A stretch of 64,000 nt of DNA from a virus: the IMG/VR virus record IMGVR_UViG_3300045988_166471, positions 2,366-66,365 of that record; one strand, 5' to 3'. The notes below the pieces were generated by a model. It saw nothing but the letters and a program-made list of their open reading frames with translations. It was not told where the DNA came from and ran no database searches. Every line of letters begins with the position of its first letter. Position 1 is the first letter of the stretch. Shown here piece after piece: positions 52,656 to 58,215 of the stretch. The position numbers were made by a program, and so were the translations under genes.

Positions 52656-52912
52656 TATTCTCCTATAGAATATAGCTAATTTGTTAATTTATTTAGTTCT
52701 TTTGAATAATCTATATTTAAGTCTTTTAATCGTAAATCCTAATTCTATAATAAATTAGCTAAGGTATAAATTATTTTTTTATTGACTTCTGGATTTGGTT
52801 CTTCTAAAGTAACCATATTATTATATATAACAAATAATAAATCCATATACCCCTTATTTTCTTTTATAATATTATTTGTAATTTCTTTTAAAACATTATC
52901 TAAATTATCCAT
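52656..52912 (-). CDS. Small protein (about 84 aa) translationally coupled (ATGGATAA overlap) to the upstream radical-SAM/SPASM gene. Possible RiPP precursor or RRE/PqqD-like partner
   Basis: MDNLDNVLKEITNNIIKENKGYMDLLFVIYNNMVTLEEPNPE... with three in-frame TAGs. Confidence 0.35.
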
Positions 52913-54265
52913 TTAAATCATACCCCAATTCTATAGCTATGTTTTCTATTACTTTTGGTAATATTTTTTGATCTTTCGCACTTTTCAAAACCCCAGTTTC
53001 AAAATATAATTTAAATAAATAATTATATTTTTCTTGAAATAAATTACAAACTGATAAACAAGGGATAGAAAAATCACCATAAGTTTCTATCTAAGCTCCC
53101 AAACATCCTTTAATACAGACATCTCTACACCAGCATTCTAAACACCTTGGAGCATAAACAGGGTTAAAAGATTTCATTCCTATATAAGCTGTGGCATTAT
53201 TACTTATTAAATCAATTATCTCTGTTTTTTCATCATTTATTTTAAAATGTCCCCCAATTAAATGATTATAACAAGTACGATGACAAGGAACGATAGCTAA
53301 ATCTCCAACCCTTATATGGACAGTAGACTACAATGCACAGCTTATTCTGTTATGTCTGTCTTCTTTATCTGATAAATTCATTAATCGTATAGGATCTCCA
53401 TTGTGCTCATTAAATGTAGGAGTATTATTAGCCCCATCCCCTTTAAACATTGCATAAGCCATAGTATTAATATCATTATTGCAATCATTCAATCTATCTT
53501 CAAAGATATGTTTTAAGAATTTTTTATAATTCTCTATAGATTCTTGAGTCCAATTATTATTTCGAACTTCTAACATATAAGGAGTTTTCTGCCATGAATT
53601 GTATTCTTTTAATTTCTTTTTAAACCAATCATAAGTTTTAATAGCTTTATCAACATTTTGGCTAGAAATCATAGGATGAAAGCCATCATTATTTTTTGTA
53701 GCAAATTCAAATAATTTATTAAAATATTCATCATTTAAATTTTTATGTTCTCTAAATTCAGTGCTATACGGCCCATCAGTAGAAAATGAAAAATGAATTT
53801 CTACATTTATATCTTTCATCTTTTGGATATATTTTTTTATTTTTATTACTTTTTCATTATCAGAAATAAAACTACCATTAGTAGGTATTACTAGTTTACC
53901 TTTTTCTTTTATTTTATAAGAAAATTCGTACCATTTTTTTAAATATGGGAAAAATATATCTAGTATATCAAAAATTAATCCATCATAAAATAGGTCTCCG
54001 GCAAATAATGACCATTCTAAAGGTTTTATTTGTTTTTTATCAAAATAATCTAATAATAATTTTAAATTATCTAATATCTAAGAATTAGAAAAATGTTCTG
54101 GATATAATTCTTTGCCATAATTAGTTATATAACAATAATCGCATTTTTGATTACAGTCTTGTCTTATAATTAATTCTAATATTTCATTTTCCATCTTTTT
54201 TAATTCATGATTAAAAATAAAATTCTAAAATAGAATATTTTCTTCCTATTGGAAATCAATAGACG
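52905..54265 (-). CDS. Radical SAM enzyme with SPASM-like C-terminal Cys cluster (copy 2)
   Basis: RBS GGAGG plus ATG 54263-54265. ...RQDCNQKCDYCYITNYGKELYPEHFSNS-TAG-ILDN verified by direct translation (CxxxCxxC). C-terminal CLECWCRDVCIKGC. Confidence 0.7.
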
Positions 54266-55707
54266 TTGTTATCATTATTTTTCCTCCAAAACTTCTTCAA
54301 TAATTCCATTACAATATCTTCTTAAAAATCCACTATCTCTAAAGAAATAAGAACCAGTACTGATTAAACTGTTAAAAAAGCAAGAATGTATAGGTACTAA
54401 TAATAATGCTGCTTTCATTAAAAATTTATCATCATTAAATTTTTGGCTTATCTAATGCACTTCTCGTAAATTACATAATAAAGAAACAATCTAATTATAT
54501 ACATAAAAGAAACTAGATACAGATAAAGTTTCAAATAAAAAACAACAATTTTTTATATCTTCATCTTTATCTTTCAATGGATTTATATAATTATGATGAT
54601 TTGCGGCGAATTGCTTAATAATCCCAATTTTATCATTAGTATTAATATATTCTGGATTAGTATCATAAAGAGAGCTCTAACAATTTACTAATGTTCCATC
54701 ATATAAAAGTTTTAAGCTTCCTGTTTTTTCTCCACAATATAAGAATGGAGTTAAGTTTCTATTAGCATTCTTTAATTCTTTATTAGAGAATGCTAAAACT
54801 TTATCAAGAGCTTCATCTAAATTAGAACATTCCAAATTTTTTAATAAAAATTTTTTTGCTTTTCGAGGTAAATACAATAATCCTTCAATAGAGTCTTTAT
54901 CTGGATTATTAATTTCTGGATAGTGTTCTCCAATTGATTTACAAATTTTTATAAAATTACTCCAATTAATACCATCAATGCTAGAAGTATTAATAGGTAA
55001 TTCGCTAGAGAAATTTATAGTATTTTTGATAAAAACAGATTTATTTAGATTTAAATTAGTTAAATATTGAATTTTTTCATTAGCCTAAATAAAATACTAT
55101 TCTATTTCTTTGTACTTATTATTAAAATGATTTATGAGTTCATTACTAATAACTCCATGAGTATTAAGAGCAACAGTAATATTATTAAAATGAATTGTAT
55201 TTAAAGTTTCTATTAAATATTTTAAATTATTATATACTACTTTAGAATTAGCTCTTCTTACATTATCAGTACTATAATCTCCATCATAAGAAAACTAAAT
55301 ACAAATAAATGAATGTTTTTTAGTTAAATTATCAAAAGTTTTTAAAAAATCAATTATTTTATCAGTATTAGCCATGCCATTAGTAGAAGTAAAAAATTCA
55401 TTAATATTGGGACATAATTCAAAAAAATCTTTTAAATTTTTAGTAAAATGTTCTAATACTAATGTAGGCTCTTGGCCCCAAAAACTTATTTTATGGATAT
55501 TTAACGGATCAACTTCTAATTTTTTTATAACATTTTTAATATTCTATAAATAACTTCCATCTTTAAGAGCCTTTATAGTCTATTCTTGCAACTATTTACT
55601 ATATTCATTTACAGCCTAAGCTGAATGACAATATTTACAATTTAAATTACATCCGCAAGCTCCAATAATAGATAATTCTTCTATTGAAAAATCTGATATA
55701 TATTTCA
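54265..55707 (-). CDS. Radical SAM enzyme (copy 3), many in-frame TAGs
   Basis: ATG 55705-55707. ELSIIGACGCNLNCKYCHSA-TAG-AVNE verified by direct translation. Stop TAA overlaps the start of the next gene (TAATG). Confidence 0.65.
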
Positions 55708-55728
55708 TTCCTTTTTCTCCTTTAAATG

Positions 55729-56233
55729 TTAAGTGTGCCTAGAACCGTAATGACTAGAGCATCCATGAGATGAACACCAGGTTTGATTAACTCCTGACCA
55801 ATAGGAAGAATGATAACCTGAACCATCATGAGAAGAATTATAAGAAGTATCCCATCCTGCTCCATAATCAGAACTATCCCAACTACTATTATATCCACTA
55901 CCTCTATGACTAGCGTTATAACTTGCATCATGAGCACAGGTATCATTTATACTTCTAATTGTAGTGGTAAATCTATTAAAAATAATAGGACTAATTAAAT
56001 CTCCTGCTGAAGGAGGATTTTCACTAATATTTGCTCTTGAACCAACATAACTGCTGCTGGAAAAAGATTCTATATACTTATTTAAATTCTGAGCTAATTG
56101 AGCCATAGCTTGTGTTGACTATCCTCCAGGAGTCGCTTGAAAATCACTCTAACTAGGGAAAAATTTTTTTCTTGCGGTATTTAAATTAGTAAAAATAGTC
56201 TAAATATCACTCCAATTTATTTTAGAGTTTGAA
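55729..56233 (-). CDS. Candidate RiPP precursor: about 60-aa leader-like N-terminus with three TAGs, then Ser/Gly/Tyr/Trp/His/Asp-rich low-complexity C-terminus
   Basis: Strong RBS GAGGAGG plus ATG 56231-56233. C-terminus SHRGSGYNSSWDSSDYGAGWDTSYNSSHDGSGYHSSYWSGVNQTWCSSHGCSSHYGSRHT. Flanked by radical SAM genes on both sides. Confidence 0.5.
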
Positions 56234-58215
56234 CTAATTGCCATATTTTTCCTCCTCGTATTTTATAAAATCAATATACTCTTTGTTAATAAATTGTTTA
56301 ATTAGTTTATTATTATCAAGTATATGATTTCCTTTATTAAATAGACTATTTAAATTAAATAATACAGTATTATTTAATTTAATAAAATCTTCTTTTTTTA
56401 TTTTATTTAATAAATCTTTATAAAACAATGGTAACTTATTAAACAAAATTTTATCATTAATTAAAATTAAACAAATAAGACTTAAACAAATTGCTTCTTC
56501 TTGTTTTATGTCTTTTAGATATTCTTTGTCTTTATCAGTTACTTCTTCTATTATAGATAAATTTACAATAATTTTATTAAAAATATGTTCGAAAATAAAA
56601 TGATTATTTTCATATTTTTTATTTGTTAAATATTGTCTATAAAAATAAGTAAAAACAATTAATTCATTTATTGTCATATATAAAAAATTAATATCTTTAC
56701 CCATACTTTCATTATTTCTATTATATACGTAAATAGGCTGTTCTAAGAAGGGAATTGCACCATTATAAAAATCAAAAATCTATAATGATAAAAATCTATC
56801 TTCATTATAAATAAATTTGCCATAAGAAAAATTATTTTTTATAAAAAATTCTTTATTATATAAATAACTATGAGCATCATGGATAAACTCATTTTTATCA
56901 TAGGTCTATCCATTTACAATTCCATAATTGTTATTTTCAGCATATATGTATAAATTTTCTAAAGCCTTATTATCATAAAAATAATCATCACTATCTAAAC
57001 AGAAAAAATACTTATTGAAGCTATTATTAATTCCTAAAGTCCTAGCTGACGCAGGGCCTGATTTAGTTTTCTAAGTGTCTAATAATATTATATTGTATAT
57101 GTTATTATAAGTTTTATAAAATTCATATACATATTTTTTATCTGGAGAATTATCACTAATTAAATAGATTACACAATCATTAATAATACTTTGTTTAAAG
57201 ACAGAATCTAAACATTTCTAAAAATATATTTTATTTATTGTATAAAAAGGAATTATAATATCAATTTTTCCTTCGTTGCGTTTTCTAAATGTTCTCATTC
57301 TATCAGGAGCATACCAAGAATCAACGTTATTCCAAGATTTCTTTTTTGAAAAATCCTAAAAATTAGAAAAATCAACAAATTTTTTATAATATTCATTATA
57401 ATTTGTTAAGAATAATTCTTTTTCTGTTTTAGTATATTCATCATAAGTTTTAGTTGATTGATCCCAATCAACCACATCTCCTGACCGACAATATTTACAT
57501 ATATTTTTTTCACATAGTTTTAAATTCTATAAATCTTGTAAATTTGTTTTTTCTGTTAGTTTTATAAAATCTTTATTTTCTATTAATGGAATTTGTTTAA
57601 AAAAATAATTACAGAAATTATTTATGTGTGCCCCAAACTGACAAAAATATATTTTAAAATCTTTTAATGTAAAGCAAGGAATCCTATTTGGACAACTATA
57701 TATACGAGTTTTATTATCTTGTTTACCTAAAGGGTCAACCAATGTCTAATCAAAGAAAAATCTATCATTTAAATATGAGATATTTTTATTATTGCTAAAA
57801 TCTTTGTAGTCTTGATTAGGATATTTAGAAATACTTATATGTATATTTAATTCTTCTAATTTTTTTAATTTTTTTGTATCATAATTATTTAAAATTATAC
57901 CATTAGTTAATATCTTTATTTCTATCTCTGGGAGAATATTTCTAGCTATCTAACATAATTCTATTAAATTAGGATGTAAAAATGGTTCTCCCCCTAATAG
58001 CATTAAAACTTTAATAGAAGGCAAAGTTTTTTTTACTAATTTTAGCTAATTTTGAAAATCTTCGTAAGTAATAAAAAATGGAGAAGCTAAAGGAGAAAAA
58101 TGATTACAATTATTGCATTGTAGGTTGCAATGGTCTACTAAATGAATTTCTAATTCAAATCCATCAAAAACTGTAGGCCAAAATGCTCTAGTAGGTCCAT
58201 CTCTATACTAATTTA
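56234..58215 (-). CDS. Radical SAM domain (copy 4) in the same continuous TAG-interrupted frame as a family-2 glycosyltransferase-like region. Possibly one fusion protein or two adjacent genes
   Basis: GTG start with AGAAGG RBS. HLVDHCNLQCNNCNHFSPLA verified by direct translation. Later IDIIIPFYT...CLDSDDYFY is GT2-like. Track ORF 56234-56704 forms the C-terminus. Confidence 0.5.

Follow-up and report, generated by a model that had tools for sequence, protein, structure and literature searches.

A ten-gene array on the minus strand of a large, uncultured gut phage is probably a phage-borne operon for the post-translational maturation of a product resembling RiPPs (peptides that ribosomes synthesize and that are modified after translation). 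The array occupies positions 48610-58225 of the 64,000-nucleotide stretch analysed here (positions 2,366 to 66,365 of IMG/VR virus record IMGVR_UViG_3300045988_166471; hereafter the window), and it unites three radical S-adenosylmethionine (rSAM) enzymes with a small protein, D, whose family pattern supports it as the best candidate substrate of the cassette enzymes. Related loci, gathered through homologs of D, homologs of the rSAM enzyme C and a scan of IMG/VR, number 14 besides the window and belong to divergent phages (they are cited below by L numbers). The initial annotation of this DNA had proposed a phage-encoded, RiPP-like cluster of several rSAM enzymes maturing a peptide or protein, and this part of its reading is well supported, D standing beside C in 13 loci. 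Many uncultured phages have kept the cassette, which is absent from cultured ones and undescribed.

Reading the array depends on the genetic code. With TAG taken as a sense codon, the total length of open reading frames (ORFs) of at least 100 amino acids on both strands rises from 51.0 to 75.0 kb, and under table 11 the cassette region is broken into short ORFs and its genes are fragmented; recoding of TGA or TAA was also considered for the window and rejected as a poorer fit in ORF coverage. In alignments of C and B, TAG codons of the window fall on glutamines that are invariant in the respective families, and L027, a relative using the standard code, has CAA or CAG at C138, C419, B316 and B395, opposite TAG in the window; by these alignments, therefore, TAG is glutamine in this phage. 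TAG occurs at 1-3 per 100 codons in the fibre genes and the rSAM cassette, and at zero in the replication-type genes (about 11-19 kb). In recoded phages, TAG density has been linked with late expression. The window holds five transfer RNA (tRNA) genes (41601-41674, 45327-45413, 45418-45492, 47082-47154 and 48472-48545) with the anticodons Gly-UCC, Tyr-GUA, Gln-UUG, Pro-UGG and Thr-UGU; none of the five has a CUA anticodon, although TAG encodes glutamine. Code switching by suppressor tRNAs is a general phenomenon in gut phages (PMC10879173).

Translated in this way, 48610-58225 is one uninterrupted array in the order E-D-C-B-A-F-G-H-I-J, with the majority of junctions overlapping or within about 30 nucleotides (nt), and the features are as follows.

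58246-58294, minus strand: intrinsic-terminator-like hairpin with a 13-bp stem and U8, from RNA folding.
56222-58225, minus strand: E, fusion of an rSAM domain and a family 2 glycosyltransferase (GT2), 667 amino acids; Pfam matches; putative GTG start.
55729-56244, minus strand: D, putative substrate, 171 amino acids; conserved family, leader-like domain plus tail.
54275-55708, minus strand: C, rSAM enzyme with a twitch-like motif, 477 amino acids; CNLNCKYC; Pfam Radical_SAM.
52905-54275, minus strand: B, rSAM/SPASM enzyme, 456 amino acids; CNQKCDYC; SPASM motif CLECWCRDVCIKGC.
52655-52912, minus strand: A, small protein, 85 amino acids; position conserved.
51804-52652, minus strand: F, apparently a divergent U32-superfamily protein, 282 amino acids, TTG start; Cys cluster.
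50861-51793, minus strand: G, second U32-like paralog, 310 amino acids; LCNAICIPNCP.
50266-50901, minus strand: H, glycosyltransferase family 8 (GT8)-like, 211 amino acids; DAD motif; borderline Pfam score.
49517-50263, minus strand: I, possible Pol-beta-type nucleotidyltransferase (NTase), 248 amino acids; GS...DID; weak Pfam match.
48610-49485, minus strand: J, third U32-like paralog, 291 amino acids; LCNDPCPIICP.

The hairpin is the 5' boundary of the unit. It lies between an upstream gene of 107 amino acids and the start of E, and the fold of 58226-58305 (minus strand) has an energy of -21.5 kcal/mol (z = -5.3), with 0 of 200 shuffles as stable; a scan for the terminator consensus overlooked it on account of its long loop. 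Promoter-like sites are no commoner than in shuffled sequence (110 versus 111), and no promoter is claimed. The initial annotation had placed the cassette at 52656-58215; the array is real, but the true unit extends beyond those limits to 48610. Its description as an AT-rich island holds, with 22.1% GC in the cassette against 30.3% elsewhere in the window (the minimum among stretches of 9.6 kb, at rank 2 of the 109 windows compared). The window as a whole has 29% GC, and nearly all of its genes are on the minus strand. A PHROGs search of A to J yielded nothing useful.

The main evidence for the maturation reading is the family of D. The precursor-like ORF seen earlier is real and conserved, but it has 171 amino acids and ends at 56244, not 168 amino acids ending at 56233. 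Homologs of the same length fall into seven clusters with 54-98% identity, and a profile search with the N-terminal domain recovered 36 protein clusters, of which that of the closest relative comprises 236 member sequences. The N-terminal domain (about 105 amino acids, residues 1-105, ending at INDTCAH) follows across the family the pattern WSDI..L(Y/F)..LN..R..F ... G.LI.P ... I..I, and its junction with the tail is often C-x-[H/Y]-[D/N]. The tail (residues 106-171, 66 amino acids) is rich in Ser, Asn, Gly and aromatic residues or His, with degenerate repeats of about four residues and two to three Cys, and tails vary in length, repeat number and sequence even among close relatives. A conserved leader followed by a variable core, encoded beside a maturase, is the arrangement seen in RiPP precursors. 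D matches no Pfam or NCBIfam model, leader families included, and a hidden Markov model (HMM) of its N-terminal domain matches neither any other protein of the window nor the protein with Cxxx repeats in L009 that is described below. AlphaFold predicts helices at residues 11-28, 44-62 and 86-101, at a predicted local distance difference test (pLDDT) score of about 58-71, and gives the tail about 30.

Tail composition was computed from 44 tails of the D family (2,734 residues): Ser makes up 22%, Asn 13.5%, Gly 11%, Tyr 11% and Phe 7.5%, while I, L, V and M together account for under 3% and Lys plus Glu for under 1%. In these tails the spacing between aromatic residues has its mode at 4, Ser predominates at positions -1, -2, +2 and +3 relative to the aromatic residues, and the residue at +2 is S in 32%, G in 21%, A in 9%, T in 8% and F in 8%. 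In the window's D this residue is mostly S, A or T, and in the close homologs P0004-P0006 it is mostly Gly. The tail had been described as a run of aromatic-x-x triads; that it is rich in aromatic residues and Ser stands, but the modal spacing is 4 rather than 3 and Gly is common at +2. Several core types can be distinguished in the family: Tyr (SYDGSYRG...), Phe (SFRASFRSNNSFDFSF...), Trp/Tyr-Asn (NYGWNSGNYGW...), His-Arg-Gly (SFYTTNNSHRG, five times), Cys-containing (CNCNCNCNCNCDSC and FDFGDCFSSCFDF), and a short, non-repetitive type of 38 amino acids. The repeats of the L019 protein can be seen in its DNA as 45-nt units; the window's D gene contains no tandem repeat at the DNA level.

We give scarcely any credence to the idea that D is an ORF arisen by chance, or a degenerate one, in AT-rich DNA. 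Low complexity, three in-frame TAG codons and overlapping ORFs in alternative frames under table 11 would fit it, but the 36 homolog clusters with their strongly conserved N-terminal domain, the 236-member cluster of the closest relative and a position kept in all 13 loci read across the junction do not; the degenerate fragment lacking conservation, of which the initial annotation had warned, is not what was found.

The order D-C-B-F-G, with a small gene of the size of A between B and F, is preserved as a core across the 14 loci. A D-family gene lies directly upstream of C in the 13 loci that could be read across this junction (12 by sequence and one, L014, by architecture only), and B follows C in 14 of the 14 other loci. 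The phages concerned include TAG-recoded, TGA-recoded and standard-code members, typically on contigs of 100-200 kb. L012 carries two D-C pairs (1753-3780 and 11703-13671); the first of its D-like proteins is too divergent for phmmer to link to D. In one lineage the cassette is cut down to D-C-B-A-F-G and lies amid genes for gyrase, ligase and DnaB. This minimal cassette lacks glycosyltransferases and does not adjoin fibre genes, and glycosylation and fibre adjacency are thus features of the window's phage rather than of the system. Megablast and tblastn searches of 50,697 GenBank phage records returned a tRNA match only, with none for B or C; a pattern-seeded scan of 185,579 bacterial and archaeal species (one genome each) found no full-length homolog of C; and in the literature on rSAM, RiPP and tail-fibre systems of phages we found no matching system. 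Small beta-rich proteins upstream of D were considered as cassette members and rejected, as they have no detectable homology between lineages. Some relatives carry further genes near the cassette (L014, 3782-4864; L012, 7321-9790; L019 and L022, 3365-5343). They include a release factor gene (PCRF/RF-1) within a few kb and, in some, an M28-peptidase-like gene fused to Zn-ribbon repeats and a gene for a protein of 463-520 amino acids that contains SVHPLDYLS...TYNWRSCHALDGEYRAGNL as a motif; the window has no counterpart of any of them.

The constancy of this neighbourhood also bears on whether D is itself the target. D might instead be a scaffold or chaperone, with another protein, such as the fibre protein at 59251-61818, as the true substrate of the rSAM enzymes: this neighbouring protein of 855 amino acids contains a Gly/Ser/Tyr/Asn-rich region of the ALK_LTK_GRD type whose composition is similar to that of the D tail. 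We hold this to be very improbable, since in most loci that fibre gene does not stand beside the cassette, whereas D is invariably adjacent and its tail type co-varies between lineages.

All three genes with a CxxxCxxC cluster that had been noted in the sequence are confirmed as such: CNQKCDYC in B, CNLNCKYC in C and CNLQCNNC in E. C exceeds the cutoff of Pfam Radical_SAM (32.0 bits against 29.5), and B reaches only 18.9 bits; the start of B overlaps the stop of C by 1 nt. Among 15 homologs of B, with identity down to 32%, the cluster cysteines C41, C45 and C48 (CX3CX2C) are invariant, and so are C313, C331, C378, C381, C387, C391 and C410. The last seven, CLECWCRDVCIKGC together with flanking cysteines, form the canonical SPASM pattern, in agreement with the SPASM-like tail that had been reported for this enzyme. 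The reference motif is CX9-15GX4C, CX2CX5CX3C, C, and in the first element of B the Gly is followed by a spacing of 6 instead of 4; against the SPASM models (TIGR04085/PF13186) B scores 17.9 with a cutoff of 27, so that its membership goes by motif, not by HMM. Below the cutoffs, B aligns weakly with PapB over its full length (2.9e-6) and with the SPASM domain (0.003), and its best NCBIfam match, far under cutoff, is a maturase of the rSAM type for nif11-like peptides. C, whose homologs form 37 clusters, all metagenomic, keeps CX3CX2C and only three further cysteines (C325, C343 and C443), which include a CX12GX4C element and hence point to a single twitch-like auxiliary cluster rather than a full SPASM domain.

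Single-sequence searches of the PDB with B and C gave no meaningful match, but a profile of B finds TigE (3e-4) and CteB (8e-3), and the profile of C also matches both. The AlphaFold model of C has an rSAM fold (pLDDT 89), and its structural neighbours are ChlB first, then TigE (18.2), anSME (17.2), CteB (16.8) and SuiB (14.4); the lead of ChlB over TigE, anSME and CteB is narrow, and the identity between C and ChlB is 14%. Foldseek returns a similar top set for this model (ChlB, CteB, SuiB, TigE and EpeE), and MoaA, BlsE and viperin rank lower with shorter alignments. By these profiles and this model, the nearest solved relatives of C and B all modify peptides or proteins; both thus resemble peptide maturases and not the nucleoside- or DNA-modifying enzymes that the initial annotation had held up as the alternative. 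Neither protein has a RiPP recognition element (RRE) domain, and none is found at the N-terminus of C. Searches with the sequences of both rSAM families and of the substrate family matched no curated model.

A second rSAM system in the same phage makes the corresponding reading of D-C-B more credible. The rSAM/SPASM protein encoded at 24548-25846 (minus strand) passes the cutoff of TIGR04115 (381 bits against 350), and the adjoining gene at 23685-24545 (minus strand) encodes 286 amino acids, with about 25 N-terminal Cxxx repeats followed by a C-terminal domain of about 150 amino acids. In L009 a module with a TIGR04115 member (424 bits) separates the fibre genes from the D cassette, and there the Cxxx repeats are C-terminal. 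Judged from these family matches, the phage lineage shows the use of rSAM maturases that act on repeat targets. Like D, the targets of this CXXX system (TIGR04115 maturase and TIGR04117 target) combine a folded domain with short-period repeats beside an rSAM/SPASM maturase; unlike them, D builds its repeats on Ser and aromatic residues rather than Cys and has an N-terminal domain that is not detectably related, and B, C and E are not members of TIGR04115, a model unlisted for them at E<=0.1.

F and G, which complete the conserved core, had been noted together with J as three unknown paralogs. They are paralogous (26-30% identity, with a common Cys cluster LCNxxCxxxC ... C), but rather than unknown they appear to be distant members of the peptidase-U32 superfamily. 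A search for this family, with F alone as the query, gathered 346 representative clusters at E<=1e-3; C188, C192 and C218 are near-invariant in the family, and a fourth Cys stands at CX3-5; Pfam Peptidase_U32 (PF01136) is matched by 7 of 45 diverse members of the F family, at best with 3e-6, and faintly by the G ortholog of L006. F-type orthologs occur in 11 of the 14 other loci and G-type orthologs likewise in 11 of 14; G is a distinct orthologous group that always lies beside F, and J-type orthologs are found in L009, L027, L025 and L026. Relatives of G also occur in GenBank human-faecal contigs; G-like matches in GenBank contigs labelled 'Bacteriophage sp.' were dropped, as they lie without the cassette and one looks bacterial. 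Among U32 hydroxylases, TrhP and RlhA act on tRNA and rRNA; F and G invite comparison with these enzymes and with UbiU-UbiV as a co-occurring pair of neighbouring paralogs that carry a conserved Cys cluster, but the relationship is very distant, and the Cys spacing of U32 hydroxylases is CX6CX15CX3-4C, against CX3CX3-5C...C in the F family. UbiU and UbiV are a U32 heterodimer in which each subunit binds a 4Fe-4S cluster through conserved cysteines, and they act as O2-independent hydroxylases (PMC6747719); prephenate is reported to be the oxygen donor in hydroxylation of this type (PMC10990095). The constant adjacency of distinct F and G orthologs would fit a pair of the UbiU-UbiV kind.

The small ORF that had been noticed next to the SPASM enzyme, gene A, is also real; it overlaps the end of B by 8 nt. 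An equivalent gene for 89-114 amino acids follows B at every locus with genes called, although only close relatives show detectable sequence similarity, and A matches no family in Pfam, NCBIfam or PHROGs. Possibly it is a subunit with a recognition or chaperone role.

The remaining cassette genes are E, H and I, of glycosyltransferase or possible NTase type. The GT2 region, described earlier as fused or adjacent to the third rSAM, is fused to it in a single ORF of 667 amino acids, E, in which an N-terminal rSAM domain is followed by the GT2 domain and a helical C-terminal region of about 200 amino acids; both parts pass Pfam cutoffs (Radical_SAM, 43.5 bits against 29.5; Glycos_transf_2, 58.9 bits against 23.3, residues 323-455), and D411, D413 and D414 of the DSDD motif are invariant. 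E is present in 8 of 14 loci, and the fusion recurs in seven other loci, among them L027 with its standard code, so that it is not an artefact of recoding. In the window's E the first in-frame ATG (58003) comes only after the cluster motif, which therefore needs a GTG start at 58225 or a nearby non-ATG start to be included; the gene call in L006 begins at an internal ATG and thereby loses the motif, and the relatives in L009, L015, L019, L022 and L027 have an upstream ATG. H, with its DAD motif, falls just short of Pfam Glyco_transf_8 (PF01501; 23.9 bits, the cutoff being 24.3), and the cassettes of L013 and L014 hold relatives of H with clear GT8 matches; I matches Pfam NTP_transf_2 without significance (E 0.057). 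Of the upstream neighbours named in the initial annotation, then, the three paralogs stand, the GT8 is borderline and the NTase weak. GT8 genes occur in three loci and the NTase-like I in the window and L009 only, and the glycosyltransferase and NTase genes are accessory to the cassette.

We have also weighed a different function for the cluster, the synthesis or transfer of an uncommon sugar or the modification of nucleic acid: the rSAM and U32 enzymes would act on nucleotides, DNA or NDP-sugars, the glycosyltransferases would attach glycans, and D would be an unrelated small protein, structural or regulatory, that travels along. The best matches of the rSAM part of E, over the rSAM core only, are MoaA, a tungsten-cofactor maturase, pVip and SpeY-type enzymes: it reaches 3e-11 with the NCBIfam MoaA model, far below the cutoff, 4.9e-12 with pVip over residues 26-132 (the sole yield of PADLOC), and 7tol and 7wzv in the PDB, so that by sequence comparison the domain looks MoaA-, viperin- or twitch-like. 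Enzymes such as GT2, GT8 and the possible NTase commonly belong to glycan pathways, and the characterised U32 hydroxylases act on quinones (UbiU/V, PMC6747719), tRNA and rRNA. We nevertheless judge this function improbable: the glycosyltransferases and NTase are missing from the minimal cassette while D is always present and abuts C, the nearest structures of C and B belong to peptide or protein modifiers with MoaA, BlsE and viperin lower, B carries the complete SPASM motif that peptide maturases typically have, and D shows the conserved-leader, variable-core pattern of a precursor.

Comparison with known systems limits how far the chemistry can be specified. The initial annotation had suggested three-residue cyclophanes, as in the triceptides (ChlA/ChlB, XyeA/B, YhhA/B, FxsA/B), for which an aromatic-X-X motif must have a third residue with a C-beta, the native motif of ChlB being YDR (PMC11499958). 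YDR resembles the Y-D/R/N-x units of D, but Gly at +2 (21%, and nearly all motifs in some homologs) cannot supply a C-beta; moreover, the repeat period of D is 4 and its leader has about 105 amino acids, and the cassette, which occurs in phages only, needs two different rSAM enzymes and two U32-like proteins. No model of a three-residue-cyclophane-forming enzyme (3-CyFE) comes near its cutoff: B scores 16.0 with YhhB and 15.5 with XyeB, and C 24.7 with YhhB, against cutoffs of 445-450, and the FxsB and GrrM/OscB models match neither at E<=0.1, so that classing these enzymes by HMM into the 3-CyFE families does not succeed. Given these low scores, the small structural margin of ChlB over cyclopropyl, thioether and formylglycine enzymes, and the Gly at +2, cyclophane chemistry is not established, and the proposal is best regarded as a reasonable analogy. 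The TigB/TigE system (TVGG-type cyclopropylglycine, RS-SPASM) differs in that TigE acts on the methyl of Val, and D tails are nearly devoid of aliphatic residues.

The suggestion of a glycocin finds no support. Glycosyltransferases occur in 8 of 14 loci and not in the minimal cassette, and the GT2 part of E is nearest in the PDB to GalT1 (5hea, 5e-12; also TarS), with no glycocin transferase among its matches at E<=1. Glycocins (SunA/SunS) and the glycosylation of serine-rich repeat proteins (SRRPs) likewise pair a cytoplasmic GT2 or GT8 with a Ser-rich polypeptide, and GalT1 belongs to the Fap1 pathway of SRRP glycosylation, but glycocins have a short, disulfide-stabilised core and the D tail has 66 amino acids predicted to be disordered. 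To our knowledge neither glycocins nor SRRPs need an rSAM enzyme, and an rSAM-GT2 fusion has been described in neither. The precursors with long leaders (Nif11 or nitrile-hydratase-like) are comparable to D in having a leader-like domain of about 100 amino acids and a variable core; in D, the double-Gly motif is absent and the C-x-[H/Y]-[D/N] junction stands in its place.

A more structural role for D has to be considered, in which it is a component of the virion, its N-terminal domain anchoring it to the fibre or baseplate while the enzymes harden and glycosylate the low-complexity tail as a protease-resistant adhesin or shield; D would then not be a diffusible RiPP. Fibre-like genes (ALK_LTK_GRD or LamG) directly precede the cassette in the window, L006, L009 and L015, and in L026 it is preceded by a 569-amino-acid ORF of fibre-like appearance; the TAG density of the cassette equals that of the fibre genes; the N-terminal domain is large, conserved and predicted to be helical; the tail is hypervariable and changes in copy number as host-range determinants do; and neither peptidase nor exporter is encoded in the window. 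Yet the minimal cassette lies amid gyrase, ligase and DnaB genes, and its D core, with 38 amino acids, Cys and no repeats, has the look of a conventional RiPP core. In L012, L014, L019 and L022 the cassette is found together with M28-peptidase-like genes (the window has no such gene), and the N-terminal domain of D resembles no other protein of the window. On balance we think a virion component unlikely.

Several observations weigh against the maturation operon that we favour. The model of D is of low confidence overall (pLDDT 50); its N-terminal domain, at 105 amino acids, is longer and more folded than most leaders, and D has no obvious cleavage motif and no double-Gly, such that the product may remain a protein rather than a peptide. 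B and C pass no curated peptide-maturase HMM (24-29 bits at best, with cutoffs of 340-519), and the rSAM domain of E resembles enzymes acting on nucleotides and sugars. PqqD/RRE proteins, a leader peptidase and an exporter have no match in A to J or in the window. F, G and J of the window have no U32 match at E<=0.1, the F-family profile has no sequence match in the PDB, and the known substrates of U32 hydroxylases are quinones and RNA, not peptides. We know of no U32 protein in peptide maturation.

If the operon nonetheless acts in maturation, its course might be the following; we infer the chemistry of the tail product from sequence, and its role is a proposal. The N-terminal domain of D, possibly with A, would be the recognition (leader) element, and C and B would abstract hydrogen atoms in the tail to form intramolecular cross-links at or next to aromatic residues, of a cyclophane, C-C or C-O type; in some relatives, whose cores are Cys-rich, thioethers are likely. 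F and G would act as a UbiU/UbiV-like Fe-S pair that tailors oxidatively without O2, for instance by hydroxylation. Sugars would be placed on Ser, Thr or Tyr in this phage by E and H, the MoaA/viperin-like domain of E possibly altering the nucleotide-sugar beforehand. All the catalysts would be compatible with anoxia, which would fit a gut host, and the cassette, TAG-dense like the fibre genes, would have to wait for active recoding, late in infection, to be translated. As its mature product we expect a cross-linked and here probably glycosylated polypeptide, which would either be set free at lysis or be carried on the virion.

Other genes of the window are recorded here for context. Fibre-like genes at 58648-59082, 63543-63827, 37027-37899 and 37915-41463 (minus strand) share a C-terminal module of about (L/I)W(I/V)D(I/T)SS.G.LKYR.S....W..IPVAW with ...ATK(K/N)YVD... 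upstream, suggesting an interchangeable family with a common domain; those tested had no match in PHROGs. Just downstream of the cassette, ORFs that begin with a GIY-YIG-like motif (..IY.ITN.IN.K.YIG(K/Q)(T/S); 47748-48395, 42949-43707 and 15347-16036, minus strand) and Cys-rich ORFs with an HNH-like HH..(N/D) (45496-45912 and 46386-46955, minus strand) are interspersed with tRNA genes and, by these motifs, are probably homing endonucleases. The gene at 35782-36918 (minus strand) encodes a secreted-looking protein of 378 amino acids, and an L006 gene of equal length (18780-19916) has an SLH match in Pfam, a hint that the host may be Gram-positive or bear an S-layer (SLH, S-layer homology). Two further genes contain no TAG codons: 30752-33241 (minus strand; 829 amino acids with a long Ala/Glu/Lys-rich coiled-coil C-terminus and a negative PHROG search) and 26251-27321 (minus strand; 356 amino acids, rich in Ala, Glu, Lys and Gln).

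On the sequence comparisons reported here, the cassette is probably a new variant, confined to phages, of the maturation of peptides or proteins by rSAM enzymes, and its U32-like partners and rSAM-GT2 fusion set it apart as unprecedented. A bolder proposal, possible if rather doubtful, is that D-C-B-A-F-G defines a new, phage-restricted class of ribosomal product, in which two rSAM enzymes and a heterodimeric U32 oxygenase yield a cross-linked, anaerobically hydroxylated and here glycosylated polymer that large gut phages would use as an adhesin, a host-range determinant or a weapon released at lysis. Hydroxylated Tyr would be catechol- or DOPA-like, and the composition of the tails recalls the adhesive proteins of the mussel foot. 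If true, this would provide the first peptide substrate of a U32 enzyme and the first characterised class of phage RiPP with its own enzymes. The hypervariable D tails constitute a natural library of substrates; all parts of the system are small and could be cloned after recoding of TAG to CAG; the rSAM-GT2 fusion is an unexplored enzyme architecture; and stop-codon recoding can hide biosynthetic clusters such as this from standard annotation. Bacteria and archaea are known to use RiPP-type maturation by rSAM enzymes; a conserved version with several enzymes in a whole clade of uncultured phages of 100-200 kb would extend it to viruses, and its obligatory pairing with two U32-like proteins suggests a new class of substrate for O2-independent hydroxylases.

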